The notes under the pieces: model-generated
What the model was told of the DNA's origin: nothing
Database searches by the model: none
Seen by the model: only the letters and a program-made list of their open reading frames with translations
NCBI GenBank assembly: GCA_963643715.1
Contig: CAVILQ010000003.1
Span: forward strand, 3,219 to 67,218
DNA length: 64,000 nt
Direction: 5' to 3'
Source of the DNA: a bacterium
GTDB taxonomy: Bacteria; Bacillota_I; Bacilli_A; RFN20; CAG-288
Translations under genes and position numbers: made by a program
Part shown: positions 8,139 through 58,163 of the stretch, piece after piece
How the letters are laid out: every line of letters starts with the position of its first letter
Position numbering within the stretch: the first letter of the stretch is position 1

Positions 8139-8164
8139 TTGGTTGGCAAATGTTTGTAAGATAA

Positions 8165-9850: not shown

Positions 9851-9851
9851 A

Positions 9852-10502
9852 TCAGATGTCCTTCTTTTCCATTTTGTCTACACTGACTTGGTAAGTGAAA
9901 AGATTCAGTAAGATAAAACATAGTAGTCCAATTAATAAATAAAGGACCTGATAGAGGATGTTTCCACCGAAATCGAGCACCTCTCCAACGGATGGAAGAT
10001 AGGCTAATACGATTCCAAAGAAGGAAAAACAGGCAAAGGAAACGAAGATAGGAAGGAGTGTGGCTAGATATCTCTTTGGTGCTGTTTTGATATATAACGG
10101 CCAAAGACATAAGTTGTAGATGCCATAGCTTAAGAAGGAACATCCAAAGATGGAAAATATGCTATCAAGTCCGGGGATTGCTAGCATCATATCTGTGGAA
10201 AAAAGATATTGCTTTAATAGCAGTACCGGAAGAGATAGCAGCATGAATGTGACTTCAAAGAAGACGGTCATGAAGAGCTTTGATTTAACATATTCTTTCT
10301 TTGAAATGGGGATGAGCGAAGAGAATGTCATATCGTTATTCTCGCTGATGCATGAGACATAACTGTTGATGCTGATTGTTAATGGAAGGAAGAACGTTAT
10401 CGTTGCAGGATAAGTCGGAAGCAAAAGAAGAAGAACAGCCAAGTATCCAAGATAGAAGACAGGATTCAAAAGAAGGAATTCTTTTTTCATTAGTGCTTTC
10501 AT
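9852..10502 (-). CDS. ABC-2 type transporter permease / membrane protein
   Basis: ~6 predicted TM helices; translationally coupled between ABC ATPase and GntR genes. Confidence 0.55.
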   Translation of the reverse strand: MKALMKKEFLLLNPVFYLGYLAVLLLLLPTYPATITFFLPLTISINSYVSCISENNDMTFSSLIPISKKEYVKSKLFMTVFFEVTFMLLSLPVLLLKQYLFSTDMMLAIPGLDSIFSIFGCSFLSYGIYNLCLWPLYIKTAPKRYLATLLPIFVSFACFSFFGIVLAYLPSVGEVLDFGGNILYQVLYLLIGLLCFILLNLFTYQVSVDKMEKKDI

Positions 10503-11356: not shown

Positions 11357-11493
11357 AGCACACCTCCGTATATACTCAGTATACACAGTTATAGGGTCCT
11401 TTCAATCTTTTCTCATCTATTTAGCTCTTCTCTTTGTTAAGTTTCCTTTGCTCTTTATCTTTAAAAGTTTTATAGTTTATATATAGCGAAGAA

Positions 11494-12240
11494 ATGAGGA
11501 CCGTTATGGACGATAATATTGTTTTCGGAAAAATACCTGTCAAAAATGCCATTGTTGGAAACAGAAAGCCGGTTCGTGTCTTTTTAAATGCGAATCATCC
11601 AGATCCTGAGATTCTATCTTTGGCTAGAAAGAATTCTCTTCCTGTGAAGATGATTTCAGCTGAGGAATTGAATCATTTATCTAACAACAAGAATCATCAA
11701 GGCGTAGTCTGCTCTATGCCTGAATTCCATTTCACGGAATTATATGATCTTCTTTCCACTGTGAAGGATAAGAAGGATTCCACCATCATCATGTTAGATG
11801 GAATCGAGGATCCTGTTAATTTCGGTTCTATCATCCGTACATCCACAGGATTTAACGTGGACGGCATCATCATCGGAAAGAATAGACAGGTTCAAGTGAC
11901 AGGAACGGTCTCGAAAGTTGCAACAGGTGGAGAGGAAATCATTCCGATTGTCCAAGTGACAAACCTCTCACAGACTCTTGAAAAACTGAAGAAAGAAGGA
12001 TACTGGGTTGTTGCTTCAGCAGGTGAAGGCAAGGATGTCTATGATGAAATTGACTATTCCGGAAAGATAGTCCTTGTTATCGGAAGCGAAGGATTTGGTG
12101 TCTCGAAGCTTGTTCGTGAACATTCAGACTTCATCGCATCCATTCCCCTTGAAGGCAAGGTGAAAGCCTTAAACGCAAGCATCGCTTGTGCAGTCTTTGT
12201 CGCTCAAATTGATTCTTATCGCAGAAAAAAACGTAAATAG
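11494..12240 (+). CDS. rlmB: 23S rRNA (guanosine-2'-O-)-methyltransferase RlmB (SpoU/TrmH family)
   Basis: SpoU substrate-binding N-domain and methylase motifs IIMLDGIEDPVNFGSIIRTSTGFNVDGIII, LVIGSEGFGVS; size and context as Bacillus yacO. Confidence 0.8.
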   Translation: MRTVMDDNIVFGKIPVKNAIVGNRKPVRVFLNANHPDPEILSLARKNSLPVKMISAEELNHLSNNKNHQGVVCSMPEFHFTELYDLLSTVKDKKDSTIIMLDGIEDPVNFGSIIRTSTGFNVDGIIIGKNRQVQVTGTVSKVATGGEEIIPIVQVTNLSQTLEKLKKEGYWVVASAGEGKDVYDEIDYSGKIVLVIGSEGFGVSKLVREHSDFIASIPLEGKVKALNASIACAVFVAQIDSYRRKKRK

Positions 12241-12344
12241 TATTTTATAAATCATAGTCGACTCTTCTACAGCACTGAGATATATCCAGAGAAAGAAAGC
12301 TTGATAGCTTTTTATGTTTTCTATGGATTTGGAGGTGCGTAACA

Positions 12345-13040
12345 ATGAAACACGCTAGTCGAGTCTATGAAAATCGTATGTTGCGGGACGAGATGAAGCT
12401 GGTCTTTGACAAGGATTCCAGCAAGTTGATGACGGTCGAAGCTGAATTCCCAAATCTGGGATATGAGTTTGAGGCCTATTCGCTTTCGGAACTTGCGATG
12501 ATCGCGAAAACTGATGATGTGGCAAGGGATGAATTCATGAGAAGAGTCGAACCTTCTTTACGACACTACGTCAAGTATGTCTGTGATGTAAGGACATTTT
12601 TGGATTACAATGCTGTTTACACAACATTGATCAAGGCAGCCAACAAGGTGATTGATATCTATATCTCCTCCTTTGGTGCTCCAGTTGAGAATCTTTTGAG
12701 AAAGAACTTTCAGTCGTATTTCAATTGGTTTGTCAAAAATGAAGGAGTTCGATATCATCGCGAACTAGCTGCATTAGGAAAGAAGGTTTGTGTCTCAGAA
12801 CTCACTTTCTTTGACAGTGTCAAGGAAGGAGAAGATGTGACGACCATGATTGTAGACAAAGTCGATTTTGAGCGCTTTATGGAAACATTGAGCAAAGAGG
12901 ATGTCGATATTCTGACGATGTATAGGATGTCCTTTTCTTATCGTGAGATTGCTGAGATCATGGCAGTTTCTAGTTCCACTATTGCCTATCGAATCAACAC
13001 ACTGTTGAAGAAATTCAAGAAGATGAGGGAGAAGAAGTGA
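12345..13040 (+). CDS. putative sigma-70 family RNA polymerase sigma factor, divergent SigH-like
   Basis: C-terminal region-4 HTH LSKEDVDILTMYRMSFSYREIAEIMAVSSSTIAYRINTLLKKF; 231 aa; lies downstream of rlmB as sigH does in Bacillus; region 2 weakly recognisable. Confidence 0.5.
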   Translation: MKHASRVYENRMLRDEMKLVFDKDSSKLMTVEAEFPNLGYEFEAYSLSELAMIAKTDDVARDEFMRRVEPSLRHYVKYVCDVRTFLDYNAVYTTLIKAANKVIDIYISSFGAPVENLLRKNFQSYFNWFVKNEGVRYHRELAALGKKVCVSELTFFDSVKEGEDVTTMIVDKVDFERFMETLSKEDVDILTMYRMSFSYREIAEIMAVSSSTIAYRINTLLKKFKKMREKK

Positions 13041-13076
13041 TTGTCTATTTCTGATTTTGATATAATCTATAGGTGA

Positions 13077-13949
13077 ATGAACCGCACTGCTATAACTATC
13101 ATTGTTCCTGTCTATCACAAAAGTGAATTCCTCAAGGAATGTCTTTCTTCTTTAAAAGAACAGGATTTTTCATTACCGTATCAGATTGTTATGATCGATT
13201 GCTGTGGCGAAGAAAGCTGCAGCAATCTTGCAAAGTCCTTTGAAAGAACGGATAGTCGTTTTTTCTATTATCGTTGGGAAATGAATAAGGGACCCGGATA
13301 TTCTAGAAACCTTGGAATCTTTCATTCTGCTGGTGAATATATCGGTTTTGTAGATGGAGATGACGTTGTAAAGCAAAATTATCTTTCTTTGCTATATGAG
13401 AAAGCAAAGAAGACAGATGCCGATGTTGTCACTTGTGGTTACTATCTCTTTGGCAAAAAAAGAAGATTCCCTGGTTATTCTCGTGTGAGAAAGACGACCG
13501 ATGGAAAGACAGTATTGAAGAGAATCTATAAGAGTGATCGTGGAAAGTTTCGTACCTTCTGTTGGGGAAGACTCTATAAGAAGAGTTTGCTTTTTGAAAA
13601 CAGGATCCTCTTCCCTCAGGATTTGATACAGTATGAGGACTGGCTTTTCATGAATGTTGTCTTGATTCATGCAAAAAAGGTAGTCTTTGTGAAGAATATG
13701 CTATACGGATATCGTCAAAGATATGATTCCATCATGTCAGATTATCACGATAGGTTTGCTTATCATAAGTCAGCAATTGAGAGATCAATTTCCTATATCA
13801 CTTCAAAAGATGATGCGTTTGCCAAGAAACTATTCACTCATCTTTCTCTTCTTGTGAGAATGCAGCTGTACTACGACTTAAAAGGCATGAAACATAAAGA
13901 AAAGAAGAAACGAATACAGGAAGTTGAGAAACTGTTTTACAAGAGGTGA
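13077..13949 (+). CDS. glycosyltransferase family 2 protein
   Basis: ITIIVPVYHKSEFLKECLSSLKEQ...; DxD-type GFVDGDDVV; typical GT2 N-terminal fold. Confidence 0.8.
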   Translation: MNRTAITIIVPVYHKSEFLKECLSSLKEQDFSLPYQIVMIDCCGEESCSNLAKSFERTDSRFFYYRWEMNKGPGYSRNLGIFHSAGEYIGFVDGDDVVKQNYLSLLYEKAKKTDADVVTCGYYLFGKKRRFPGYSRVRKTTDGKTVLKRIYKSDRGKFRTFCWGRLYKKSLLFENRILFPQDLIQYEDWLFMNVVLIHAKKVVFVKNMLYGYRQRYDSIMSDYHDRFAYHKSAIERSISYITSKDDAFAKKLFTHLSLLVRMQLYYDLKGMKHKEKKKRIQEVEKLFYKR

Positions 13950-13952
13950 GGT

Positions 13953-14846
13953 ATGAAGAGAGAAATCTTTGAGAATCTAGCGAGAAAACTCTATTTTCAT
14001 CGTAACGAAAATGCAATCAAATCCGATAACGGAAAGGCTTTGCTGATCGGATCAAGCCATGATTTTCCAAATGCTATATTGATCGCAAGTGAATGCGCTA
14101 TTCTGTCCGGCAACGGATATAATGCGGTCTCTGTTCCAGATTCAGTTTATCCTATTGTCTTTTCAAGAGTTTCTCCTTTATGCATCCACCAAGAGATTGT
14201 GTGTGCTAAAGATGATTTCCTTTTGGATGGCTTATTCTATCTTAAGAAATATGATTCGGTTCTTTTTGGAAATGGAGTCTCTGTTTCAGAGAAGAATTAT
14301 AAGTTTCTAAGGGGATTGATTGAGAATGCAGAAAAGAATCTGGTTTTAGATGCAAGCGCGCTTCGATTGTTATCAGAATACGGATCTGACATTCTCAAAT
14401 TGAAAAAGAAGGATACTAAAATTCTGTTGACTCCACATCTAGGAGAGGCCGGTGCGTTGCTTCATGATAGTCTTCATTCTAAAAATCCGGATGATTTCCT
14501 TTTGAAGGCAAAAGAGTTTGCACAGGAATATGATGTCTCGATTCTTTTAAAGAGCATATCATCGATTCTAGTGCTTCCGGATGGAAGTAGTTTCCATTCC
14601 GATTACTCTCCTACTGTCTCACTTGCAAAAGCGGGATCAGGAGATGGCTTGTCTGGTTATATCACAGGTCTATTATCCTTTGCTGAGAAGTATGTGAGTT
14701 ATTCGGATGCGATTCTATTTGCAGATACGATGGTTCATCTTGCTATGTCAGAATTGGAGAAAATCAATTCACCATCCCTCTATTCGATTCTCTCACTAAG
14801 AGAGGGGATGGAAATTGTGTTGAGTCGTTTGAAAAAGGAAGAATAG
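13953..14846 (+). CDS. nnrD: ADP-dependent NAD(P)H-hydrate dehydratase (YjeF C-terminal/Nnr family)
   Basis: LTPHLGEAGALL matches YjeF_C ITPHPGEFARL; GSGDGLSG matches GSGDVLAG. Confidence 0.7.
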   Translation: MKREIFENLARKLYFHRNENAIKSDNGKALLIGSSHDFPNAILIASECAILSGNGYNAVSVPDSVYPIVFSRVSPLCIHQEIVCAKDDFLLDGLFYLKKYDSVLFGNGVSVSEKNYKFLRGLIENAEKNLVLDASALRLLSEYGSDILKLKKKDTKILLTPHLGEAGALLHDSLHSKNPDDFLLKAKEFAQEYDVSILLKSISSILVLPDGSSFHSDYSPTVSLAKAGSGDGLSGYITGLLSFAEKYVSYSDAILFADTMVHLAMSELEKINSPSLYSILSLREGMEIVLSRLKKEE

Positions 14847-33102: not shown

Positions 33103-33372
33103 ATGGTACAAAATGACAAGATAAATCAAGAAAAGGCGATGTCATATTTGAAAGCTGGATATCACCTAGTAAGCATCATCGGGAAAAGAGAAGTCAGATT
33201 CTCCTATAGTCAAGGTAAGATACTTGTGTTTGGAGAAGAGCATTTCTTATCACTTAATGAGTATTCCTTCAAAGAAATTTATCATGATTGTCTTTTCCAG
33301 TTGGATACAGAAAACGAGGAAGAGACAGTCGATATGAAGAAAGATGAAGAGTATTACTCATGGAAGCAATAA
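33103..33372 (+). CDS. hypothetical small protein (89 aa)
   Basis: ORF only; may start at internal MSYLK; divergent from nudix operon. Confidence 0.3.
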   Translation: MVQNDKINQEKAMSYLKAGYHLVSIIGKREVRFSYSQGKILVFGEEHFLSLNEYSFKEIYHDCLFQLDTENEEETVDMKKDEEYYSWKQ

Positions 33373-33439
33373 AAACACTTGAAAAAATTGGATTTTTCGC
33401 TATAATTATCTAGCATTATATCAGTGAGGTATATTTACT

Positions 33440-33586
33440 ATGGGAAAGAAAAGATTTGAAGCCAGAGGCTTTGCAGATGAATGGGCCGTTAGAAGAAAAA
33501 AGAGATTAGCCAAGGAACAGAAGTCCGAAGCTAAGAATAAGGCTGCAAAGAAAGCCGCTAAGGCTGCTGCTTTGGAAGCAAAATAA
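33440..33586 (+). CDS. small Lys/Ala-rich basic protein (48 aa), not in supplied ORF track
   Basis: ATG 9 nt after GTGAGGT RBS; MGKKRFEARGFADEWAVRRKKRLAKEQKSEAKNKAAKKAAKAAALEAK; followed by terminator. Confidence 0.4.
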   Translation: MGKKRFEARGFADEWAVRRKKRLAKEQKSEAKNKAAKKAAKAAALEAK

Positions 33587-33608: not shown

Positions 33609-33641
33609 CTGCTATCCGAAAGGGTAGCTTTTTCTTTTTCT
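33609..33641 (+). terminator. Rho-independent terminator (GAAA tetraloop hairpin + T-run)
   Basis: gctatcc-gaaa-gggtagc followed by TTTTTCTTTTTC. Confidence 0.5.
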
Positions 33642-33654: not shown

Positions 33655-33693
33655 AAAAAACCGGAAGACGAATGCCTTCCGGTTTTGTTGTTT
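33655..33693. terminator. Bidirectional terminator
   Basis: aaaaaa-ccggaag-acgaatgc-cttccgg-ttttgttgttttt; immediately after stop of the 1332-aa minus-strand gene. Confidence 0.65.
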
Positions 33694-36600
33694 TTAGATT
33701 ACGCCGAAGAAATAGTTCTTTGTAGAATCAGAATAACTGAGAGTCAGCTTAGCTCCGTTATCCTGAACGGATCCGCCATTGATGAAGCCAAGGAAGTTTT
33801 TGGTGAACGTGTAGTCGACGAATTGGTAGTCAGCTAAGTTGACATAATCGCTGTTGCTATTATAGGCATTTAAGAAGGTGTTGTATCTAGCCATCTTCTC
33901 GTCGCGGATAGCATCTTCTGCATCACCGAGACAGATGTTGTTTCTTGTCGCGTTGAAGGTTAGAGTTCCATCCATAATGCCAGCAATAGAGAATTTGACT
34001 GACATATTGAGATTAGCCAGTTCCATGTCGGAATTATATCCGATGCTGATGTTGGTTCCCTGATCAGAGAAGCTGAGAACAGGAAGAGAAATCACCTTTC
34101 CTAATGAACAGGTCAGGTTCATTGATCCACTTCCGTCTTCATTTTCATTTAGTACAGCTTTATCGATGAGAGAGGAGTAGTTGTGGTTGATGACAACAGA
34201 GGAATCATCGCTGGTGCTCTTCGTAGCTTCAAGGACTTTCTGAAGCGTGATATAGCCAGCCTTGACACCAATAGCAGTAACGCTTTCGATGTTGAGGATG
34301 TAGCTTAAGAGGTAGTAAGCGATATTGTCAGTGATTTCCTTAGGAGTGAGTTTGTATAGCTCGACTTTCTTGTTTTTCTTGCTGTCGGTTGTGGTTCTTT
34401 CAGAGAGAACGAATTCGTTCTCGACGAAGAATTCAACACCATAGAAGTTTGCGCTATCGATTGTTGCGGAAGAGTTGCTCTTAAAGGAGAGATATGCTTT
34501 GACAGTGGAATCAACAATAGAGACATAGACCTGATAGTAAGTGTTCATTGTGATGGCATTGATACCGATAACGGATGCATTAAGATTCATGCTTCCGCTT
34601 AAATCAAAGAAGTGGTGGTTGGTAGTTGTGATACCGCAGTTGATTAAAGTATCGAAACCGTGAACATCGACAAAGTTAGCTTTTGTGCTATCGTTGTATT
34701 CGATAGTTGGTTTTAAACTAGCGTCATATTCGCCTAGATTGATTTCAGCATGTAAAGAATAACCATCGTAGTATCCGTCAATCTCTGCTTTGCTGATTTT
34801 ATAGTTGTCATCGAATGTGACAATGATCGTATCGACATTGTCAGAAGTGTCATTGCTGTTCAATATAGAGGAAGCGAGTTTCAATGTGACAGTCTTATCA
34901 TTGATTTCAACCAGTTTGATGTAGTCGTTTAAGAGGATGGTGTAGTCTTTGTTTTTGAAAGCGTCAAGGATAGGAAGACCAGTGACTACTTTTTCAGTTG
35001 TATCGAAGTAGGCTTTAAGATAACGATAGAGAAGGTTTGTCTTATTGTCTTTCAAGGAGGTGACTCTATCGTAGATGGAGAAGAGGTCGGAGTTGTTCAT
35101 GACAAGACTTGTCGTACCGGAGTCATTGTTGCTATCTGTATCCTTAGAAGTATACATGGCAACGGTCTGTCCGGCAGTATGAGTACCTGAGTAGAGATAA
35201 TCAATCTTATGATCCGTCTCCTTTTCATAGCTATCAGGCTGCTGTAAGAGATGGAGTGTACCACCGACATCCGGGCTATCTTTATCTGTGATATCGACCT
35301 GAGCATCACCATAGATACCGAGATAGGATTGATACTGTTCGGTATCATCCTTCTTCTTGATTTCACCGTTTAAGTTAACGGAGAATTGTTTCAAATCGGT
35401 TGGAAGTGAATAGAATCCATTGATGATCTTGCTGGCAGAATCGATTTCGGTATAGTACTTTGTCTCTTCATCTGACAGATGGAAGTCTTTGTATTCATCC
35501 TGAAGTTTCAATGTGAAGTCTAATTTTAGCTTGTTGTTGATTTCAAATCCTTTGCAGGAAATAGCGGTGATGGAGTCGTCGTCGGTGTTGACATAGAGGG
35601 AAAGGCTAGAAATTTCATCAGCAAGGGTGGAACCTGCAAAGAACAAAGGAAGATTGATATCGAGTTTCAAGACATTGGAATCAACATTGTCTTTGTCCAA
35701 TGAGAGATAGTCTTCGATGCATTTAATGGAATAACTTCCTTTGATTTCATCAATGATGGAGTGAATGACCGTATTCATACTGTCAAAGGCCTGGGAAGTA
35801 TTCTCTTTATCTTTGTTTACGATATCGTAGATGTTGCCGACTTCACTATCAGACATCTTCTGCTTGAAGAAGTTATCCATCTGCAAGTATAAATCATGGT
35901 TCTGGTAGACAAAGTCAAGATTATGGTCATATCCATTGAGATTGGTGGCTAATGTCAAACGATAGTCGCCATAATAATTGTTTCCGGTATCGAGTGAAAG
36001 AGATGTGACATCAGCTGAGATTTCGCCGTTAGCAAGATAGTTGCTTCCTTCGGCGATATTCTGAAGATTGAATGAATAGGTCGTATTGATCTTACGTTCA
36101 TCAGCAAGCTTTGTCACAGTGTTGAATATGGAGATGATACCGCAATAGTCTTTGAAGGAAGCGAATTCAGCATCGGTGTACTGGAAGGAAATGTTATCCT
36201 GTGGCTTGACATCGATAGTGAAATCAAGATTGATGTTTCTATAGGAGAAGTTCTCGATCGTGATCTTGAATCCTTCAGACACATCAGTAGAAGAGTTGTC
36301 TAAAGTGATTTTCAAAATATAATCGCCTAAGCCAAATGCTTTTGCGTTGATGGAAAGAGCAAAACCATTTGTCGTGGTCTGGAAATCGGCAATGAAGTTC
36401 TTATACACAGACAAATCACCAGATAACAGCTTTGCAAAGTCCGTTCCTTCGATGATGCTATTAAGGCTCTTTGTAACATCCGGAAGATCCTCAGTATTGA
36501 TTTCAGAGGAGATGACACGAATGATGTCATCTAATGTAGAAGAAGAGATTTTACCTTTGATGAGATTGTTCAGTGCAACATAGATGTTGTTGTCCTTGTA

Positions 36601-37692
36601 AGAAGCATAGACATTGTTTGCAAGTGTTCCATTATTTAAATGTTCCAAGGAAACTTCGTATTTTCCTTTTGAGACATCCTCTGTAATAGTTGATAAGTCG
36701 CTCTTTAATGTACCACGGAACGTCTGCTTCTGAATCGAATTGTCAGAGACGCTGACATCAGCATTGAAATCGGCAACGAAGTTCTTCTTTTCCATCAAGG
36801 ATGCGATGGAAGTGATGAGATTTGTCGTGCGTGTTGTATAGTCGGTATAGTGGGATTTTTGTTCATCTGTGAGTCCGTTATAGGAAGAAGCATCCTCAAT
36901 CTTGATACTGTTTACATCGAGCTTGATTCCATAGGAAGAATTGATCTCAATACCGGAATCTTCGACTGTTCTTCCGCCGATGAAGTTGTAATCGTTGTCC
37001 GCAACTAAAGCGAGTTTTGCACCTTTGATAGAGATAGGAAGATTCAAGGATGAAATGAAATCGTTGCAGTCAAGAATGTATTCATATCCTGTAGCAGTCT
37101 TCTTTTCTTCGACGGTGTCAAGAATGCCTAGAGCGCCATTCATCAAGGATGAAAGATCGAATGAACTTCCTAAATCAGGAATGGTAGGCACATTGATGTT
37201 CAATTTTGAGAGAACACCAGTGATACCGGCAATCGTTTTTGGAGCAGAGAACGAGAAAGATTTCTGATTGTAGTCGATATAGAGCATATCCGTATCGTAA
37301 TAAACGGATAATTCCTCATTAATATCCTTGTATTTGACATTCAATGTTCCGTTCAGCTTAAGCGAAGAGATATCGCCACTCAAAGCACCACTTAAATCGA
37401 TATCTAGATTACTGAAGTTCAGATAGATGTCATCGCTTTCGGTAGTAGATAAGGTGATGTCAGCGTTGTCCGCTTTGACTTCCTGCACCTTCATCAACTT
37501 GTTGATCATCTTCGAGAAGCCGGTTTCCTCAATCGGAGGATTGTAGATACTATCATCCTCGTCGTCATTAGAAGTATCGGTAGTATCTGTCTTAGCAGTA
37601 GTTCTAGTAAGCTTTTGATAAAGGTAAGATCCAGCACCAGATATGCTTAGAGTCAGCACGCTGATAAGAGGATATAAAATGATATGTTTCAT
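33694..37692 (-). CDS. giant (1332 aa) membrane-anchored extracytoplasmic protein, N/S/T/D-rich, beta-rich, function unknown
   Basis: N-terminal TM MKHIILYPLISVLTLSISGAGSYLY, no lipobox, no catalytic motif; 15 nt downstream of 370-aa partner gene; own bidirectional terminator. Confidence 0.6.
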   Translation of the reverse strand: MKHIILYPLISVLTLSISGAGSYLYQKLTRTTAKTDTTDTSNDDEDDSIYNPPIEETGFSKMINKLMKVQEVKADNADITLSTTESDDIYLNFSNLDIDLSGALSGDISSLKLNGTLNVKYKDINEELSVYYDTDMLYIDYNQKSFSFSAPKTIAGITGVLSKLNINVPTIPDLGSSFDLSSLMNGALGILDTVEEKKTATGYEYILDCNDFISSLNLPISIKGAKLALVADNDYNFIGGRTVEDSGIEINSSYGIKLDVNSIKIEDASSYNGLTDEQKSHYTDYTTRTTNLITSIASLMEKKNFVADFNADVSVSDNSIQKQTFRGTLKSDLSTITEDVSKGKYEVSLEHLNNGTLANNVYASYKDNNIYVALNNLIKGKISSSTLDDIIRVISSEINTEDLPDVTKSLNSIIEGTDFAKLLSGDLSVYKNFIADFQTTTNGFALSINAKAFGLGDYILKITLDNSSTDVSEGFKITIENFSYRNINLDFTIDVKPQDNISFQYTDAEFASFKDYCGIISIFNTVTKLADERKINTTYSFNLQNIAEGSNYLANGEISADVTSLSLDTGNNYYGDYRLTLATNLNGYDHNLDFVYQNHDLYLQMDNFFKQKMSDSEVGNIYDIVNKDKENTSQAFDSMNTVIHSIIDEIKGSYSIKCIEDYLSLDKDNVDSNVLKLDINLPLFFAGSTLADEISSLSLYVNTDDDSITAISCKGFEINNKLKLDFTLKLQDEYKDFHLSDEETKYYTEIDSASKIINGFYSLPTDLKQFSVNLNGEIKKKDDTEQYQSYLGIYGDAQVDITDKDSPDVGGTLHLLQQPDSYEKETDHKIDYLYSGTHTAGQTVAMYTSKDTDSNNDSGTTSLVMNNSDLFSIYDRVTSLKDNKTNLLYRYLKAYFDTTEKVVTGLPILDAFKNKDYTILLNDYIKLVEINDKTVTLKLASSILNSNDTSDNVDTIIVTFDDNYKISKAEIDGYYDGYSLHAEINLGEYDASLKPTIEYNDSTKANFVDVHGFDTLINCGITTTNHHFFDLSGSMNLNASVIGINAITMNTYYQVYVSIVDSTVKAYLSFKSNSSATIDSANFYGVEFFVENEFVLSERTTTDSKKNKKVELYKLTPKEITDNIAYYLLSYILNIESVTAIGVKAGYITLQKVLEATKSTSDDSSVVINHNYSSLIDKAVLNENEDGSGSMNLTCSLGKVISLPVLSFSDQGTNISIGYNSDMELANLNMSVKFSIAGIMDGTLTFNATRNNICLGDAEDAIRDEKMARYNTFLNAYNSNSDYVNLADYQFVDYTFTKNFLGFINGGSVQDNGAKLTLSYSDSTKNYFFGVI

Positions 37693-37707
37693 TAATCATT
37701 CTCCTTT

Positions 37708-38820
37708 CTAAATATTCATCAATTCGTACCCATTGAATTCTTCTGTGATTTCGGGAACGACAACATTTACGGATTTTCCATCGTTTTCAATTGTGTTTGT
37801 AGAGCTTGTCAAATAAATCTGATTGAGGTCAGAAATGGCGTTTGTGACTAGACCACCAGTGTTAACACGGTATTCATCATGGAAGACAGAAGATACAAGT
37901 TTCAGTTCACTGTTCAAGTCAAAAGTAAGTTTACAACTTGAAAATTGTGGACGAGATTTTAGCCTACCTGTTGTTTTCATCTGAACTTGGACATAGGAGA
38001 CGGCATAGCCGACATTCAGATCTAATTCGACATGGTACCCGGTGTCTGTCTTACTGATGGTGGATTTGCTGACAGACTTATTTGTCAAAGAGTAACCGAT
38101 GACACCACTTCTTTTATGTTTGCTTTCTTCAGTGGATGAATCATATTCATCTTTATTTAAAGTCAAGAATTTTTCTGGGATTGGTTCATCATCAGAGACG
38201 TCACTCTTATCGATACAATAGTATGTTCCATGCAATAACTTTCCAAAAGATTGGATGTATTGGTCATAGGTGTAGTTCTTTGATTCCAATCCATCTTTTT
38301 TCCATTCATCTTCGGTTTTGCATTCATATGCCTTGACGTTATTATCGTTGGTATCATAATAACGATCGGCCGTGTTGACGATGGAAGAAGATGAAACCTT
38401 CTGGTTGAAGACACCTTCCGGATAGCTATATGTTGTGCTGAGAATTGATTGCTTTACACCAGCGGCAGCCTGAACAACACCTTTTCCAAGCGTTAAGGTG
38501 TAGGAGGTGTCTGCATATAAGTCACATGCATAATTGATCAATATATAGGAGTCCTCACTAAAATCTTCTGCGATAGTTCCCGCGGACAATGAGTTCTCGA
38601 TTTTTGTTTTGTCGTATGACTTATCCTTTTCGATGACGATGGCGTCTTGTTCAGGATTGATATTGTTATATAAGACATATCCACCGATTACACCAACACT
38701 AGCAGAGATGATGCTGATGATTGTTGAAATTATGATAGTAGACTTTTTTGTCTTTTTCTTTGTTCCGGTGGAATTGTTATCTTTATCTGTTGAATTTGAT
38801 TTTTCTTTGTTTCTTTTCAT
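37708..38820 (-). CDS. membrane-anchored protein (K-rich cytoplasmic N-tail + TM + extracytoplasmic domain), unknown function
   Basis: KKKTKKSTIIISTIISIISASVGVIGGYVLY TM anchor; co-oriented and near-contiguous with the giant gene. Confidence 0.6.
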   Translation of the reverse strand: MKRNKEKSNSTDKDNNSTGTKKKTKKSTIIISTIISIISASVGVIGGYVLYNNINPEQDAIVIEKDKSYDKTKIENSLSAGTIAEDFSEDSYILINYACDLYADTSYTLTLGKGVVQAAAGVKQSILSTTYSYPEGVFNQKVSSSSIVNTADRYYDTNDNNVKAYECKTEDEWKKDGLESKNYTYDQYIQSFGKLLHGTYYCIDKSDVSDDEPIPEKFLTLNKDEYDSSTEESKHKRSGVIGYSLTNKSVSKSTISKTDTGYHVELDLNVGYAVSYVQVQMKTTGRLKSRPQFSSCKLTFDLNSELKLVSSVFHDEYRVNTGGLVTNAISDLNQIYLTSSTNTIENDGKSVNVVVPEITEEFNGYELMNI

Positions 38821-38915
38821 AATACCTTAAAACATAGCATAGATCATAAGAAAACACATGCTATATAGGTATAATATCTTCTTTCAACAAAATGGTCAAT
38901 TGTTATTCAAAAAAA

Positions 38916-39275
38916 CTATTTATCGGATTCCATCAAGATACGCATACGTTCTTCGTATCTTCTTCTCTTGTTTTCTTCCTGGATTGTCTTGTTTGTATAA
39001 TAAAAGATGACAATGAGAAGACCAATCATAGCGATGATCATAGCAAAGGTTCCCCAAAGTCTGAAGTCCATGACACCACTCATATGAAAGAAAGTGGCAA
39101 AGGATTTCTGAAGAGCATAAAGAGGATTTGTATTCAACTTTCCGATGTTATAGGCGCAGACACCGAGAATAGCAAAAACAAGGCCGGTGACCCAAATGGC
39201 ACCGAGGATGCTATACCAAACGATTTCGCCTGTGAATAATTTTCTCGGTTTCTTATTTTCTTTTGTATCTTTCAT
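38916..39275 (-). CDS. small membrane protein (2-3 TM), unknown function
   Basis: TMs IVWYSILGAIWVTGLVFAILGVCAY and GTFAMIIAMIGLLIVIFYY; AAGGGAG RBS overlapping upstream gene end. Confidence 0.55.
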   Translation of the reverse strand: MKDTKENKKPRKLFTGEIVWYSILGAIWVTGLVFAILGVCAYNIGKLNTNPLYALQKSFATFFHMSGVMDFRLWGTFAMIIAMIGLLIVIFYYTNKTIQEENKRRRYEERMRILMESDK

Positions 39276-39276
39276 A

Positions 39277-40164
39277 TTAGTTTTCTCCCTTTTCTGCCAT
39301 TCTCATCTTTTCGCCGATTTCTGCAAATCTCTTGTTGAGATCATTCTGGGTGGCATTCAAGATTTTATCGAAATAGGAACTGAAGAGCTCAAAGTATTTC
39401 TTCGGATCGGTAGTCTGCTTCTTGCCGGTGAAGATTTCGCAATCGGAATAGACGGCATCACGTGCAAAGCGGAATTCCTCATCATTTTCGCCATAGGAAT
39501 TGAGAACGGCGACCATATCCTGATTGAGCTGATGGAATTCATTTTCCAACATACGGAAAGAAGGATCGTTTCTAGGATCGAATTCCGGATCCTTATGTGG
39601 ATCGATGCCATTATGCTCTTTGGAATAAGACTGAGCATAAGTGTTTGCATTATTGTTCAGTTCCAAGAACTTATCAGCAATCAACATACAGGAAATCTTT
39701 CCAGCAAAAGCGTGGAAGAAGCGGATATCTTCGTTGATGAGTTCTTCGAAATCGGATTCAAGCTTGCCTCTTTCTTTCAACGACTTCTTTGCGGCGAGCA
39801 TGAAAGCTTCCAACAATCCACGGAGTTTAACGATTGTGGAGAACAATTCGATGATCAAGGATTGCTCAACGCTGACTTTGCCATCGATTGTGACTGTGAC
39901 GATTCTACCAGGATCACCATAGACATCCTCGATAAAATACTGCATGTCCTCTTTAAGACTCTTGCCAGCATCGCCATTTGTATCACAGTTCATTGCGAAA
40001 GGAGAACCCTCCTGTGTCAATGCAACTAAAGCGTTATAGCGAGACTTTCTTTCGTTAAGATCGAAACCGGCAGTGTTTCTTGGCTGTAAGCAATACCATA
40101 ATGTAGACTCTACAATTCTAGCAATTGTAACAATCGTCATTACATTCTTTTCTTCATCGTTCAT
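39277..40164 (-). CDS. hypothetical soluble protein (295 aa, helical/charged), first gene of the cluster
   Basis: GTGAGGAAA RBS; extended -10 promoter upstream; antisense 280-aa ORF on + strand rejected on composition. Confidence 0.55.
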   Translation of the reverse strand: MNDEEKNVMTIVTIARIVESTLWYCLQPRNTAGFDLNERKSRYNALVALTQEGSPFAMNCDTNGDAGKSLKEDMQYFIEDVYGDPGRIVTVTIDGKVSVEQSLIIELFSTIVKLRGLLEAFMLAAKKSLKERGKLESDFEELINEDIRFFHAFAGKISCMLIADKFLELNNNANTYAQSYSKEHNGIDPHKDPEFDPRNDPSFRMLENEFHQLNQDMVAVLNSYGENDEEFRFARDAVYSDCEIFTGKKQTTDPKKYFELFSSYFDKILNATQNDLNKRFAEIGEKMRMAEKGEN

Positions 40165-44814: not shown

Positions 44815-44919
44815 AACTGATTTCTCCGTGAAACATTATATCACTCATGTAATTTAACTTTTTGAAATAAAATTCATTTTTTCTCTTTTGTGCATATATG
44901 TATTTATGGAGGCACAAAT

Positions 44920-46071
44920 ATGAGTAATTTTCTATGCTACAGATACAGAATGAATCTGAAAGACGAACAAAAGGAAGAGTTTGACGAACTGTATAGGTGT
45001 TATGTCGCAGTTATCAATCAGTCGATTGCCTTGATCTCTGTGAATGATGGATTTGGAAAGAGAAATATAGATTTGGATTTCAGTTTATGGAATCAGAAAA
45101 TGAGTGGTTTGCCAGAAACATGTTACATCAGAAAACGATTCTCCCCCTTATTGCATTATATAAGGAATACAGTCAGATACTATGAAAGAAGCAGACTACA
45201 AGGAAGAGCAGTTTCTAAGTGCAAAAATCCTCAATCTATTGTAGCTTCAATTCCATTTTATCCGAAGGATGTCAATATAAACTTTAAACGAACATCACCA
45301 AAGATGGCAGAATTGAATCTCTTGCCATTTGGGCCGATTCAATTACAGTATCATAGGCCGTTTCCGAAAGATAGCCATTGCATCCTGATGACTATGAAAA
45401 GAGAACTAGATAAGAGGTATTATCTAGATTTCCTATTAAACAATGCATATAGCACTCTTTTGCCAAAAAGGAACATTGAATTAGATGATATACTTGGCAT
45501 CGATTTCTCTTTGAAGCATTTCTTTGTCTCTACAGATGACACTATCTTTGCAAATATGCAAATGATCGTACCATCAAGAAAGAAACAAAAACTGATAGAA
45601 ATACGAAGGAATAATTATATTCGCTCAGAAGATGAATCCAAAAACAAAGAAAGAAAAAGAATGCTATATGTGGAATCATTAAGACGAATAAAAGAAAACA
45701 GAAGACAATACTTCTATACGCTAGCTCACAAGATTTTTGAAAAGTATGAAGCAGTAGCAGTTGAAACACTGGAACTTAGCAAAATAAAGGAAAACAAAAA
45801 TTATTCAAAATTGATTGTGAAGGAAAGTTATCATCAGTTTGAAATGATATTAGATGAAGTGGCGAAGAAAGAAGGAAAAAGAGTAATCAGAATCCCTAAA
45901 TGGTATCCATCATCAAAAATCTGTTCGTTTTGTGAAGCGAAAAAAGAAGACCTGAAAGTATATGAGAAGGAATGGATATGCCCTAACTGTAAAAAGATAG
46001 TCCAAAGAGACAAAAATGCGGCAGAGAACATCAAAAGGAAAGCCTATGAAATGATCAAAAAAGAAAAGTGA
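44920..46071 (+). CDS. tnpB: IS200/IS605-family TnpB (OrfB) RNA-guided endonuclease-like transposase accessory protein
   Basis: C-terminal zinc finger CSFC...CPNC followed by RDKNAAENIKRKA (RuvC-III DxNAAxNI hallmark); GGAGG RBS at 44909; no tnpA nearby. Confidence 0.85.
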   Translation: MSNFLCYRYRMNLKDEQKEEFDELYRCYVAVINQSIALISVNDGFGKRNIDLDFSLWNQKMSGLPETCYIRKRFSPLLHYIRNTVRYYERSRLQGRAVSKCKNPQSIVASIPFYPKDVNINFKRTSPKMAELNLLPFGPIQLQYHRPFPKDSHCILMTMKRELDKRYYLDFLLNNAYSTLLPKRNIELDDILGIDFSLKHFFVSTDDTIFANMQMIVPSRKKQKLIEIRRNNYIRSEDESKNKERKRMLYVESLRRIKENRRQYFYTLAHKIFEKYEAVAVETLELSKIKENKNYSKLIVKESYHQFEMILDEVAKKEGKRVIRIPKWYPSSKICSFCEAKKEDLKVYEKEWICPNCKKIVQRDKNAAENIKRKAYEMIKKEK

Positions 46072-46401: not shown

Positions 46402-46489
46402 TGGTGCCCGGGGCCGGACTTGAACCGGCACGGATTATTAGTCCGCGGGATTTTAAATCCCGTGCGTCTACCGATTTCGCCACCCGGGC
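46402..46489 (-). tRNA. tRNA-Leu (anticodon TAA), long variable arm, CCA encoded
   Basis: Folded by hand: acceptor GCCCGGG/CCCGGGC, anticodon loop TTTAAAA, variable arm CGGACTAATAATCCGTG, T-loop TTCAAGT. Confidence 0.85.
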
Positions 46490-46496
46490 AAGAAGA

Positions 46497-46572
46497 TGGT
46501 GACTCGTATGGAACTCGAATCCATGGCCCCTTGATTAAAAGTCAAGTGCTCTACCGACTGAGCTAACGAGTC
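46497..46572 (-). tRNA. tRNA-Lys (anticodon TTT), CCA encoded
   Basis: Acceptor GACTCGT/ACGAGTC, D-arm GCTCAGTCGGTAGAGC, anticodon stem CTTGA/TCAAG loop CTTTTAA, T-arm ATGGA-TTCGAGT-TCCAT. Confidence 0.9.
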
Positions 46573-46579
46573 ATTTAAT

Positions 46580-46654
46580 TGGCTGGGATAGAAGGGCTCG
46601 AACCTTCGCATATCAGAGTCAAAGTCTGATGCCTTACCACTTGGCTATATCCCA
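46580..46654 (-). tRNA. tRNA-Gln (anticodon TTG), CCA encoded
   Basis: TGGGATATAGCCAAGTGGTAAGGC...CTTTGAC...TATCCCAGCCA closely parallels Bacillus tRNA-Gln. Confidence 0.9.
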
Positions 46655-46709
46655 ACATATGGCCAGTGCACTGAATATTCCAACTGAAACATCAATAAGA
46701 TAACATAGG

Positions 46710-46793
46710 TGGTGGGCGGTCGTGGATTTGAACCACGGAACCCGAAGGAACAGATTTACAGTCTGCCGCATTTGGCCGCTTTGCTAACCGCCC
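46710..46793 (-). tRNA. tRNA-Tyr (anticodon GTA), long variable arm, CCA encoded
   Basis: Acceptor GGGCGGT/ACCGCCC, anticodon loop CTGTAAA, variable hairpin CCTTCGGG, T-arm CGTGG-TTCAAAT-CCACG. Confidence 0.85.
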
Positions 46794-46822
46794 ACATATT
46801 ACGCAACTGATCTTTACAAGAA

Positions 46823-46899
46823 TGGTGGATGCTAAGAGACTTGAACTCCTGACCCCCGCCGTGTAAAGGCGATGCTCTAACCAACTGAGCTAAGCATCC
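46823..46899 (-). tRNA. tRNA-Val (anticodon TAC), CCA encoded
   Basis: Acceptor GGATGCT/AGCATCC, D-arm GCTCAGTTGGTTAGAGC, anticodon stem TCGCC/GGCGG loop TTTACAC, T-loop TTCAAGT. Confidence 0.85.
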
Positions 46900-54554: not shown

Positions 54555-54878
54555 ATGAATCAAAAAAACTATGGTACGAAGCTGAACTTAGGTATTGTTG
54601 GCGGTGTCTTATCTTTAATCCTAGGTGGTGGAAGCGTTATTGGATTTTTGGTGTTCCTTATTGTCGCGGTTTTTGCGGCAATCGGTCTTTCAACATATCA
54701 AGAAGGAACAGAAGCCTGGATAAAGCAAAACGCTGTCGTGCAGAATTATGAATTCCTCGCCTATTTATTTGCCGCTCTTGCAGTCGTCTTCGTTGTATTA
54801 GGAATCGTTTTGTTAGTTGTTTTCATCAAAAAGAAGAAAAATTTGAAGAAACAAGCAATCAATACTGAAGAGAAGTGA
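54555..54878 (+). CDS. small membrane protein (2-3 TM), unknown function
   Basis: AAAGGAG RBS 9 nt upstream; hydrophobic helices LGIVGGVLSLILGGGSVIGFLVFLIVAVFAAIGL and FAALAVVFVVLGIVLLVVFI. Confidence 0.5.
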   Translation: MNQKNYGTKLNLGIVGGVLSLILGGGSVIGFLVFLIVAVFAAIGLSTYQEGTEAWIKQNAVVQNYEFLAYLFAALAVVFVVLGIVLLVVFIKKKKNLKKQAINTEEK

Positions 54879-56442
54879 TGATTCCAATACTGTCTTCAGC
54901 GGATAAAGCAAAGGATAACGATTGAGACTGAACACCATATAGTGCACAATGATACTCGTATTGTTGCCCAAGATATGGTGTTCTTTTTGGTTTGATTATA
55001 GAATCGAAATAAAGGTTTTCCCCTCTTCTAGAGTAGGTGATGTCGACATCCATCTCTTTGTAAATTGGATAGATATCTGTGTTGTAATCGAAAACATATG
55101 ATTCACTGTTATTGTAATTGGCAGACGTGCCGATTCCCTTTCCATCCTGATTGACATCATCCATCCACCCGAACCAATCAAAACGAGTGACCCAACGGTC
55201 TTTTGTTTCTGTATCGTAGACAATGGGTAGGACAGTTCTCCAACACACTTCACTTCCACTATTGGGCTTTTCTGTATAGCTGATGGCACCATAGTTTTCT
55301 AACGACAGTTTCATAGTAAAATCACCTTTTAAGTCATTAGCATATTTAAGCCACAGGTTTTCATCGCTCCATCCAGTAGAATTGCTTCTATCGATGCTGT
55401 TTACATTTAGAGAATGAATTGCGCCAGAGTAAATCTGCTTTGCTTTGATTGTTTTACTTTCAGTTGCAAAGCCTGATAGTAGAGATTCATCACTCAGCTT
55501 GTAATTTGGAAGGTCACTGACAATAAAAGAATAGGAATAGGGTTCTTTTGCTGCTTTTGTATGCAATTCAAGAATGTTGTCATTCTCATCGACACATTCT
55601 AGCTCCGTGATGATGTAAGGCTCTGTTCTACTAATTACTTTACTATAATCGGCATCTTTAGAGACAATCAAATTATGAATTTCAGCATCACCAAGACAAA
55701 AACCATCTTTTTGAACGCAAGATAATATACCTTTATAAACTGTGTTGTATGTCGGATATTTGTTTCCATTTGTTCTATTGTTGAATAGTGTGAAGACTCT
55801 ATGTGTGTTTTTATAGATCACTGCCTTGTCAGAACTGAATGAGAATGTGTAAACGGCCTCCTCATTCTCCCTTAAGTAGAGATTTGAATCATAGTTGTTC
55901 TCAATATAGGAATCATAATAATAGAGAACATTACGATCATAAGATATGTAGGAGCTTGTGATTTCAAAGTCACTTCCTATGAATAAGGATTGATTAGCAT
56001 GAAGAGATTTTGCATAAAAGGTGAAAGACAATCCGAACTCTTCGTTGGCCATAAAGGAAGAAAAAGATGCATCTGCTTTTGGATCAGCAATTTCTTTCTC
56101 ATCATAATAATAGATAACGTTAATACATTCTTCTTCGTTCTTTTTAATGCCTTCAACTGTAGTGACATTCGGACTCATGAAAGGAATCTCAATATTGACA
56201 GGTATTGAATAAGGCTTGTTGGGTTCTAGAGACTTCGTCTCACGAGCAAGAAAGGTTCCATCTTCATAGCAGTAATTGATAACAAGCGTAGACTTTTCTT
56301 CACTGGAAGAAAAGCTTTCCGATTCCTGAATTTCTTCAGAATTATTTGATTGGGCTTGGTCGGAATACGAAAGGGATTCTTTTGCTTGGCAGGAGACGGA
56401 TAGACATAGAATCAAAGGTAGTATCAATACATTCTTTTTCAT
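54859..56442 (-). CDS. lipoprotein, unknown function (527 aa), upstream neighbour of CotH-family gene
   Basis: MKKNVLILPLILCLSVSCQAK lipobox with AAGGAG RBS; ORF-track TTG extension rejected. Confidence 0.55.
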   Translation of the reverse strand: MKKNVLILPLILCLSVSCQAKESLSYSDQAQSNNSEEIQESESFSSSEEKSTLVINYCYEDGTFLARETKSLEPNKPYSIPVNIEIPFMSPNVTTVEGIKKNEEECINVIYYYDEKEIADPKADASFSSFMANEEFGLSFTFYAKSLHANQSLFIGSDFEITSSYISYDRNVLYYYDSYIENNYDSNLYLRENEEAVYTFSFSSDKAVIYKNTHRVFTLFNNRTNGNKYPTYNTVYKGILSCVQKDGFCLGDAEIHNLIVSKDADYSKVISRTEPYIITELECVDENDNILELHTKAAKEPYSYSFIVSDLPNYKLSDESLLSGFATESKTIKAKQIYSGAIHSLNVNSIDRSNSTGWSDENLWLKYANDLKGDFTMKLSLENYGAISYTEKPNSGSEVCWRTVLPIVYDTETKDRWVTRFDWFGWMDDVNQDGKGIGTSANYNNSESYVFDYNTDIYPIYKEMDVDITYSRRGENLYFDSIIKPKRTPYLGQQYEYHCALYGVQSQSLSFALSAEDSIGIITSLQY

Positions 56443-56453
56443 GCTTTTCTCCT

Positions 56454-58163
56454 TTAGTACATACAAAGTATGTTTTTGATTTCAGAAAGAAACGTCCCGC
56501 TCTTCTTCTCAAAGAAATTGAAAACATCATTGATATCTTTGTTCCAAGAAGATAAATCCTCTTCTTTTTGTCCCCATCTTAAAGACGAATAATTGTGATA
56601 AGGTCTAACCTCATCAATCATTCTGTTCATTGTGTTCATACAATTGTATGGTGAAAGAATTGTATTCACTAATTCGGATGCTCGATTGTATAAAGCATCA
56701 CGGAAAGATTGATTTGACATCAGTTTCTGAAAGAGAGGAAATTTGCAATACGCATTTGCGTGATACGGATACAAAGGATTCTGATAACTAGTGAAAGCAA
56801 AATCTGTATCGTGAAGAACGAATCTGAATTTTCCATCCTCATATTCGTTATCATCGTTTGCTTCTTGAACTGTCCACATCTTGAGATTATTGAAATTTCC
56901 AATGAAATCCCAATTTCCAGAATAAGCGTGTGCAAGAATGACGTCTAGGAAAGAATGAATATCTAAATACTTGTCAATGAATTGCTGATACACAGTATCA
57001 TTGCTGAAATCATTGTTTGATAGATAGGATTCCATTTCATTCAACTTCGTGATTCCAACCGTTTCATCCCCTTCATCAACAGACCAAGTTCCTTTTAAAT
57101 CGTAGGTGATTACATTATCTTTATCGACATCATAGTTGTTTTCAAAATAGACATCCTTATATTGCTCACGAATCGACATAATTCCCCAGTACTCTCCGTT
57201 TATATAGACAACTGCTGGGCGATAACCAGTGGTGGCCGCATAACCGTCCTTCATTATCTCTTGAAGAATGGCATCATTGATTCGTGTAGAAGATTCGAAA
57301 GCATTGCCTCCGTTATGAAGCCTTATCCTAGTGAGATTCGTCAGTCTTTTTGTGCTATCAGATCTCATAGTTCGATTTTCAAAGACATGCTCTTTTACTT
57401 TATCATTCTTCTTTCCGTTTTCGTCCTTGTTGAAATTGAGATTCAATGTTCTTTGCGGATAACCTAAAGTCCAATTTCCACCTAGCTTAACTTGTGTGTT
57501 TCTGTAAAAGTATTCGTTATATTTGCTGTCGAAATATTCTAAGTCTGCTCTTTTACTGATGTCCTCTCTGATTTTGTTATAAAAACCATTATCACCCATA
57601 ATATCTTCATAGGGAAGGGACAATGAGATGACAGGAATATCGATGTTTTCTGTTACCTTATCAGAGATGATATAGGTTAATGATCTTTTGAATACCGTTT
57701 GCTTTGTCTCTTTATCGATCACAGCGATTTTAACGACAGGCTGCTTGTCAAACAAGACATAATTTCCAGTCTTCTGAATGTTATTGATGTAAGTGTCAGA
57801 AACGCATTTTCCTTCTGTATCATCCGAAAGAATCGCGTCAACAGACTTGGTTACTGGATAGTTAGCGATGTTATTTGTTGAAGATTTGTTCACCGTGAAG
57901 GGCTTTTCGTATAATGTCATCGCTGAAACATCTGAATTGTCATAATTCAGACTATAGTAAAGCTCTAGATCGTCATCGATAGAGAAGGATAAAGTCTGTT
58001 CAGTAGAATAATATTCAGGCATCTTTGAAATGTAGATTCCAGAATATAATTCCGTATAACCGTTAGGTATGGCCTTAGTATCAGCACTGCTATTAAACAC
58101 AAAACCGGACATTAGCGATAATGTCGTTAGAGGATAAATTAGAAAACCCTTGATCTTTTTCAT
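56454..58163 (-). CDS. CotH kinase family protein (secreted)
   Basis: Signal peptide; CotH-like YINGEYWGIMSIREQ (cf. LYINGEYxGLY) and HDTDFAF (cf. WDxDxSFG); 569 aa. Confidence 0.6.
   Translation of the reverse strand: MKKIKGFLIYPLTTLSLMSGFVFNSSADTKAIPNGYTELYSGIYISKMPEYYSTEQTLSFSIDDDLELYYSLNYDNSDVSAMTLYEKPFTVNKSSTNNIANYPVTKSVDAILSDDTEGKCVSDTYINNIQKTGNYVLFDKQPVVKIAVIDKETKQTVFKRSLTYIISDKVTENIDIPVISLSLPYEDIMGDNGFYNKIREDISKRADLEYFDSKYNEYFYRNTQVKLGGNWTLGYPQRTLNLNFNKDENGKKNDKVKEHVFENRTMRSDSTKRLTNLTRIRLHNGGNAFESSTRINDAILQEIMKDGYAATTGYRPAVVYINGEYWGIMSIREQYKDVYFENNYDVDKDNVITYDLKGTWSVDEGDETVGITKLNEMESYLSNNDFSNDTVYQQFIDKYLDIHSFLDVILAHAYSGNWDFIGNFNNLKMWTVQEANDDNEYEDGKFRFVLHDTDFAFTSYQNPLYPYHANAYCKFPLFQKLMSNQSFRDALYNRASELVNTILSPYNCMNTMNRMIDEVRPYHNYSSLRWGQKEEDLSSWNKDINDVFNFFEKKSGTFLSEIKNILCMY

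Follow-up and report, generated by a model that had tools for sequence, protein, structure and literature searches.

A conserved gene pair of uncultured gut Bacilli predicted to encode membrane-anchored LolA/LprG-like half-barrels, singly and as a five-module chain

Introduction

Do four adjacent genes of an uncultured gut bacterium, none of them assignable to a named family, form one cell-envelope system, and what might the largest product, a protein of 1332 amino acids (aa), do outside the cell? These questions are raised by a 64,000-nucleotide stretch of contig CAVILQ010000003.1 (assembly GCA_963643715.1, positions 3,219 to 67,218), hereafter the window, from a member of the Bacilli (GTDB lineage CAG-288). 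A preliminary description had grouped the four genes, here g1 to g4, into a single envelope cluster. Our comparisons do not support a four-gene unit; they point to two independent two-gene modules, A (g1-g2) and B (g3-g4), with strong support from gene linkage for g3-g4. From structure modelling we predict, with good confidence, one membrane-tethered LolA/LprG-like half-barrel for g3 and five such half-barrels in tandem for g4. These structural and linkage parts of our reading are very probably correct, and we put at roughly 0.45 the probability that g3-g4 serves as an extracytoplasmic chain for the handling of lipids or some other hydrophobic ligand.

Results

The four genes are as follows (all positions are those of the window unless a locus number is given).

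39277-40164, minus strand: g1, an acidic, soluble protein of 295 aa, forming with g2 a conserved module tied to the gene for the ribosome hibernation factor HPF
38916-39275, minus strand: g2, a 119-aa protein with two transmembrane segments, starting 1 nucleotide (nt) past the g1 stop
37708-38820, minus strand: g3, a 370-aa type II membrane protein with a lysine-rich cytoplasmic tail, a transmembrane segment (aa 26-52) and a predicted LolA/LppX-like ectodomain
33694-37692, minus strand: g4, 1332 aa, comprising an N-terminal signal-anchor and five predicted LolA/LprG-like modules in tandem

The open reading frame (ORF) list bears out the co-oriented gene models, lengths and spacings first described, with intergenic spacers of 1 nt (g1-g2), 95 nt (g2-g3) and 15 nt (g3-g4) and the ribosome-binding site AAAGGAG before g4. 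Hydropathy agrees with the topologies proposed earlier, giving no transmembrane segment in g1, two in g2, one after the lysine-rich tail in g3 and one at the N-terminus of g4. The unusual composition noted for g4 was also confirmed: N, S, T, D and Y make up 43.6% of the protein, which is Trp-free and has a net charge of -83. Its first Cys is not before residue 209, excluding a lipobox, and a motif scan found no LPXTG-like motif.

None of the four products gave a match above noise in Pfam, NCBIfam, PADLOC or PHROGs. Sequence searches of the PDB returned no relative of g4, and profile searches with g3 and g1 gave nothing meaningful, so that no family can be named for any of the four, as the preliminary description had stated. 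A defence-system or phage origin was rejected, given the negative PADLOC and PHROGs results, and an ETRAMP match on g3 was discounted as compositional, being due to the lysine-rich tail and transmembrane segment. All four are real, conserved genes; across related loci in metagenome-assembled genomes (MAGs), identity is 65-97% for g1 and g2 and 37-95% for g3 and g4.

The whole stretch is collinear in nine related gut-MAG loci, in the order orn decarboxylase, HPF, g1, g2, g3, g4, NUDIX, MazG, p177 and transaldolase, and synteny at that range is therefore uninformative on function. Loci L007 and L009, the most distant of the nine, share 63-71% identity with the window in g1, g2 and HPF, 38-54% in g3 and 37-40% in g4. 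Beyond this range the two gene pairs separate. When the ORFs of 12 lineage representatives were clustered all-against-all for shared families, only g3 and g4 proved common to all 12, and g1, g2 and NUDIX co-occurred in only four related representatives. The g3 and g4 genes are adjacent in 12/12 lineages, eight of which have no g1-g2 within the examined flanks, a few of these loci having short upstream flanks. A metagenome scan for g3, based on a six-sequence g3 alignment, recovered loci with a g4-type ORF immediately downstream in 21/21 cases; HPF-g1-g2 lay upstream in only two of them, those of the window and L009 lineages. Likewise, each locus found through g4 had a g3-type gene directly upstream. 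The pair is co-oriented and often overlapping, and the g3-like gene is retained in front of each distant g4 member even though the gene context there is unrelated to that of the window, as in the following loci.

L014: 366 + 1225 aa, preceded by cardiolipin synthase; identity of the 366-aa product to g3 is 29% (E 2e-33)
L016: 371 + 1393 + 1319 aa
L017: 292 + 1035 aa
L019: 425 + 1538 aa, plus a divergently transcribed 1474-aa paralogue
L020: 403 + 1272 aa

Inspection of L014 (5254-8004) places the cardiolipin synthase (PLDc) gene directly upstream of g3-g4 and next to a mur/ftsW cluster, which indicates that this host makes peptidoglycan.

The pair can also be duplicated as such: in L009, a contig labelled 'uncultured Mollicutes UMGS171', two g3-g4 pairs lie in tandem (5801-8583 and 8907-14215), and g4 has tandem or divergent paralogues in several lineages. 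The reciprocal situation, g1-g2 adjoining HPF without any g4, is found in L010/11, L012/13 and L042/43. The last of these shares the backbone of the window, including two small opposite-strand genes, with nothing between g2 and these genes; in the window lineage g3-g4 is thus inserted at this point, behind g2 and ahead of the small ORFs.

The preliminary description had regarded conserved synteny of all four genes as essential to its four-gene unit, in which g2 would be a small membrane adaptor of the giant protein. Four-gene synteny is not conserved; the two-gene synteny of g3-g4 survives strongly, and comparative support for g2 as an adaptor is missing in most lineages. We nevertheless considered a single envelope system in which g1-g2 would be a platform that energises or positions g3-g4. 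No terminator was found in the g2-g3 gap, making read-through from the g1 promoter possible; the window clade and four further lineages (L007, L009, L018 and L010) show g1-g2-g3(-g4) adjacency; and in L010 a g3-like gene whose product has no transmembrane segment overlaps the g2 stop codon. However, a conserved orn-HPF-g1-g2-...-NUDIX-MazG backbone into which g3-g4 became inserted accounts for the adjacency, and such a system is improbable in view of the eight lineages with g3-g4 and no g1-g2 in flanks that are short in a few cases, the presence of g1-g2 without g4 in L010, L012 and L042/43, and the very different evolutionary rates of the two pairs.

Four candidate regulatory sites flank or punctuate the region.

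40272-40245: hairpin terminator of HPF, upstream of the g1 promoter
40231-40204, minus strand: extended -10 promoter TTTAAA-16-(TG)TATAAT, upstream of g1 and just past the HPF terminator
38899-38871, minus strand: promoter-like site TTGACC-17-TATTAT in the g2-g3 gap, a consensus match only
33657-33686, both strands: G+C-rich hairpin with T-runs on both strands, a strong terminator after g4

The g1 promoter and the bidirectional terminator are those reported at the two ends of the cluster in the preliminary description. The site in the g2-g3 gap is absent from it and is a possible separate start for g3-g4.

We identified the wider g4 family with an exhaustive hidden Markov model (HMM) profile search using g4 residues 50-1249 as query. 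This returned 92 representative clusters, 58 of them at E<1e-30 and nearly all full-length proteins of 1200-1580 aa; word-indexed searches with g4, or with its alignment, yielded the same 21 close relatives. The family thus comprises about 90 clusters at 50% identity, has no Pfam model, and is annotated in the relatives' records only as 'hypothetical protein'. The g3-g4 family was found only in uncultured gut Bacilli. Two loci with 86-90% g4 identity, L001 and L006, carry the MAG labels 'Oscillospiraceae bacterium' and 'Alistipes onderdonkii'; these deposits almost certainly represent a mis-binned Bacilli contig.

A structure model of g4 residues 50-1249, built from a 60-sequence alignment, has a predicted local distance difference test (pLDDT) score of 81.3 and a predicted template modelling (pTM) score of 0.51. 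By DSSP the same pattern, an N-terminal helix, six strands, a helical insert and five strands, occurs five times with a period of about 230-260 residues. The predicted parts of g4 are as follows.

37621-37683, minus strand: N-terminal hydrophobic segment (aa 4-24), ending in a conserved SGxGxY, from hydropathy and family comparison
36841-37533, minus strand: module U1 (aa 54-284), opening with a conserved GFSKMINK helix, from DSSP and hhalign
36151-36840, minus strand: module U2 (aa 285-514), eleven strands and a helical insert, from hhalign and DSSP
35446-36150, minus strand: module U3 (aa 515-749), from DSSP and hhalign
34672-35445, minus strand: module U4 (aa 750-1007), from DSSP and hhalign
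33946-34671, minus strand: module U5 (aa 1008-1249), with the same pattern of six strands, helices and five strands by DSSP
33694-33945, minus strand: C-terminal tail (aa 1250-1332), 83 residues beyond the modelled range

Profile comparison indicates that U1 to U4 are mutually homologous, with hhalign probabilities of 99.9% (U2-U3), 99.5% (U2-U4), 99.1% (U3-U4), 96.6% (U1-U2) and 97% (U1-U3). Sequence homology of U5 to these modules was not established by hhalign (31% at best, U1-U5), nor did hhalign detect a sequence relation of g3 to the g4 modules. We ran unit-specific HMMs on 111 family proteins and found U1-U5 in fixed order in 76 of them, at lengths of 1225-1583 aa. The order is fixed over this range, and length changes must therefore fall inside the modules. 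In a distant g4 subfamily, whose members are about 950-1050 aa long, the modules number three or four. Separately, the first g4 copy of L009, with only 516 aa (modules U1-U2) and a gap of 320 nt behind it, may be a pseudogene or a truncated paralogue.

The fold of g3 and g4 was recognised from the models. A Foldseek probability of 1.0 was reached for LolA, LprG and LprF only, and a structure comparison scored LprG at 8.7 and LprF at 8.6, with generic outer-membrane barrels interleaved. In the modelled domains, about 11 antiparallel strands form the unclosed half-barrel with plugging helices that characterises the LolA/LolB/LppX-LprG superfamily. We conclude that membership in the LolA superfamily holds, as modelled, at fold level only.

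These models also bear on the earlier comparison of g4 with AsmA/TamB proteins. TamB, YhdP and YdbH are likewise large and N-terminally anchored, with a proposed ATP-free movement of lipids across the envelope; g4 has the N-terminal inner-membrane anchor of this group, in a hydrophobic stretch at aa 4-22, and its long beta-rich extracytoplasmic region resembles theirs, a likeness in outline only. A bridge of the AsmA/TamB/YhdP kind would possess a continuous beta-taco groove, whereas the g4 model is split into five helix-plus-sheet modules, arranged as beads of LolA-like half-barrels. In addition, neither g4 (at E<=1) nor its seven weakest relatives matched AsmA, AsmA_2 or TamB (DUF490) in Pfam, and the TamB structure 9xdc_B gave a Foldseek probability of 0.10 and a TMt of 0.12. 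The preliminary description had thus provided a good lead in likening g4 to repetitive, beta-rich envelope proteins that handle lipids, but the AsmA/TamB identity itself is contradicted by the missing Pfam match and the five discrete modules. This reading is effectively refuted at the level of the modelled fold, and we consider it highly improbable.

Both proteins appear to be held in the membrane by a transmembrane anchor. In every lineage g3 has a lysine- and arginine-rich tail before the transmembrane segment, implying an N-in, C-out topology. At the start of g4 a short MK- n-region leads into a hydrophobic segment, an arrangement conserved across the family; some second paralogues resemble ordinary cleavable signal peptides. 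Neither a lipobox nor a soluble form was found, as the N-terminal regions of g3 and g4 contain no Cys and both have an uncleaved-looking transmembrane anchor. Both products are thus predicted to lie on the outer side of the membrane. The transmembrane segments of g3 (38665-38745) and g4 (37621-37683) end in a similar Gly/Tyr motif, GVIGGYVLY in g3 and SGAGSYLY in g4, in the window clade and in several other lineages. Its invariance was judged in alignments of close homologues, where S18, G19, G21, Y23 and L24 of g4 are invariant. We infer from the shared motif that the g3 and g4 helices may pack together in a transmembrane interaction.

Module A is, as far as its sequences indicate, a cytoplasmic acidic protein and a small two-transmembrane protein in a conserved HPF-linked backbone. 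The g1-g2 genes are kept beside the gene for the hibernation factor with or without g3-g4, sometimes with a HAD hydrolase in between, and g2 always directly follows g1, to which it is translationally coupled; its tails are basic. Both genes evolve slowly, like housekeeping genes, and are as conserved as HPF. The g1 family comprises 86 clusters, every one unnamed or 'hypothetical'. No Pfam or PDB relative was obtained for either protein, and the weak match of 4 among 30 g1 relatives to Pfam BAR_3 (best E 4.6e-5) is a lead, not a finding. Among g1 lineages the most distant is L010, where (5624-6915) a g3-like protein of 301 aa with no transmembrane segment starts on, and overlaps, the stop codon of g2, without a g4 behind it. 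In this possible alternative to the usual arrangement, g2 would provide the membrane anchor.

Several other features of the window and its relatives were recorded.

33440-33586, plus strand: very basic 48-aa ORF (MGKKRFEARGFADEWAVRRKKRLAKEQKSEAKNKAAKKAAKAAALEAK), convergent with g4, with its own near-consensus promoter (33379-33406) and hairpin terminator (33611-33628); it is kept in related loci, including L042/43 and L012/13, which have no g3-g4, and is therefore probably a real small backbone gene
33103-33372, plus strand: 89-aa ORF without a family, present throughout the related loci (L010 and L042/43 among them) between g4 or g2 and NUDIX, at 38-99% identity
31666-32199, minus strand: 177-aa protein with one N-terminal transmembrane segment and no Pfam match, found downstream of MazG in related loci at 53-94% identity
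21704-23698, plus strand: 664-aa protein with a Listeria-Bacteroides repeat (Flg_new), directly after PNPase, a probable further surface protein
44890-46071, plus strand, and 46405-46899, minus strand: 393-aa protein with a Cas12f1-like TNB domain (TnpB-type, IS200/605-like), adjoining a cluster of five tRNA genes
54859-58163, minus strand: CotH-kinase-family protein (569 aa) overlapping the start of a 535-aa protein without a Pfam match, an unusual observation for a probably non-sporulating, genome-reduced organism

Discussion

If g3-g4 handles lipids, the half-barrels would bind acyl chains or another hydrophobic ligand. The g3 protein, at the membrane surface, would swap ligand with the membrane as a membrane-proximal loader or unloader, and would hand it 'mouth-to-mouth' to the g4 modules in the manner of LolA and LolB. 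We estimate from five modules of about 4 nm that g4 would form an outward-reaching chain of about 20 nm. No transporter or ATPase is conserved beside g3-g4, and any transfer would therefore be passive. Working without ATP, the chain might serve lipid uptake from the gut environment or, alternatively, the outward delivery of glycolipids or lipoproteins. The hosts of g3-g4 are gut Bacilli with reduced genomes and with relatives that lack fatty-acid synthesis. Scavenging is an attractive option because gut Bacilli of the RF39 type have been reported to be entirely without fatty-acid synthesis (PMC6784871).

A precedent for the proposed transfer is the Lol system, whose proteins share the unclosed, helix-plugged half-barrel. 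Mouth-to-mouth transfer from LolA to LolB is established, and represents a hand-over between like-folded proteins, one of which is membrane-tethered (reviewed in PMC13078400). However, the Lol system needs the ATP-binding cassette (ABC) transporter LolCDE and an outer membrane, whereas g3-g4 occurs in single-membrane Bacilli, has its modules in tandem and lacks a LolCDE-like neighbour. LprG, LprF and LppX (LppX_LprAFG) are single domains of about 200 aa with a lipobox anchor, and LprG works with the major facilitator superfamily (MFS) pump Rv1410. The g3-g4 proteins differ from these in their transmembrane anchor, the absence of an N-terminal Cys, the five modules in series with a one-module partner and the lack of a conserved pump; sequence identity is 6-11%, with no Pfam match. 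A functional analogy may be drawn with P116 of Mycoplasma pneumoniae, a relative of the Bacilli with a reduced genome and lipid auxotrophy; this large surface protein acts as an ATP-independent lipid shuttle (PMC10023570, PMC12487902). P116 has its own fold, with no P116 chain among the structural matches listed and no sequence similarity to g4.

Several observations weigh against a lipid-handling role. At E<=1, g3, g4 and 11 relatives of g3 had no Pfam or NCBIfam match to LolA, LolB, LppX_LprAFG, MucB_RseB or related domains of unknown function. The LolA fold also serves non-lipid roles in Firmicutes: GerS of Clostridioides difficile, which has this fold in a monoderm Firmicute, is a single-domain lipoprotein that allosterically activates an amidase and has no lipid role (10.1101/2025.01.13.632879), so the fold alone is no proof of lipid handling. 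No transporter, acyltransferase or lipid enzyme beside g3-g4 is shared across the 12 lineages, though a partner may be encoded elsewhere, and the cardiolipin synthase of L014 is the only lipid-metabolism neighbour seen, in that one lineage. For the window organism itself, loss of fatty-acid synthesis is assumed, and the pTM of 0.51 leaves the relative arrangement of the g4 modules uncertain. Finally, g3 and g4 diverge far more rapidly than the adjoining genes and form paralogues, like surface antigens.

The last point suggests that g4 may instead be a surface structural protein, adhesin or antigen, with the LolA-like modules as a rigid scaffold, g3 as an assembly or anchoring partner, and no lipid involved. 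We regard this as the main rival reading, possible though on balance unlikely. The 37-40% identity of g4 where g1 is 65-68% identical, its tandem or divergent paralogues, its acidic, Trp-free and N/S/T/D/Y-rich composition and the known non-lipid uses of the fold are all consistent with such a role. Related uncultured orders are, moreover, predicted to have thin or absent walls, incomplete teichoic-acid pathways and often missing sortases, and transmembrane-anchored surface proteins would be expected in such cells (PMC10868615). Adhesin stalks, however, typically vary in repeat number, and the fixed module number and positional orthology seen in 76/111 relatives argue for a constrained machine rather than a variable stalk. 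We found no immunoglobulin (Ig), beta-helix, lectin, S-layer homology (SLH) or LPXTG features in g4, and no Pfam domain of a known adhesin or S-layer family or of another cell-wall-binding kind; an adhesin or S-layer identity, together with freely varying neighbours, was named in the preliminary description as a result that would undo its proposal. An obligate single-module partner such as g3 would also be without an obvious role.

The example of GerS, and that of RseB, which is likewise LolA-like, raise the further possibility that g3-g4 is an envelope sensor or allosteric regulator whose half-barrels bind an envelope signal or activate a wall-modifying enzyme. Across the 12 lineages, the surroundings of the pair include no conserved sigma/anti-sigma, amidase or kinase gene. 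A cytoplasmic signalling domain is missing from both proteins, the tail of g3 being simply a lysine-rich stretch, and five modules in some 1300 aa appear excessive for the purpose; we therefore consider regulation a poor candidate.

The lipid-handling reading can be extended to a more specific proposal, an ATP-independent lipid 'bucket brigade' of single-membrane bacteria, in which a g3 loader would feed five g4 half-barrels reaching through a thin wall into the gut lumen. This is speculative, and in this exact form we think it doubtful. If true, fatty-acid-auxotrophic uncultured Bacilli would use it to harvest lipids or to export glycolipids, and it would be a monoderm counterpart, derived from an unrelated fold, of the bridge-like lipid transporters of diderms.

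The fold of g3 and g4 is a known one. What we have not seen described is the unnamed family, the five-module tandem, the transmembrane anchor in place of a lipobox and the obligate one-module partner; in the literature on tandem LolA-like proteins in Gram-positive bacteria we found no description of the g3-g4 family. The predicted architecture would represent an expansion of the LolA/LprG fold in single-membrane bacteria. Uncultured, genome-reduced gut Bacilli (RF39 and relatives) are common in humans, and g3-g4 is a concrete candidate for the membrane-lipid acquisition step in gut Bacilli that have been reported to lack fatty-acid synthesis (PMC6784871). A role of the pair in lipid handling could aid the culturing of these organisms.

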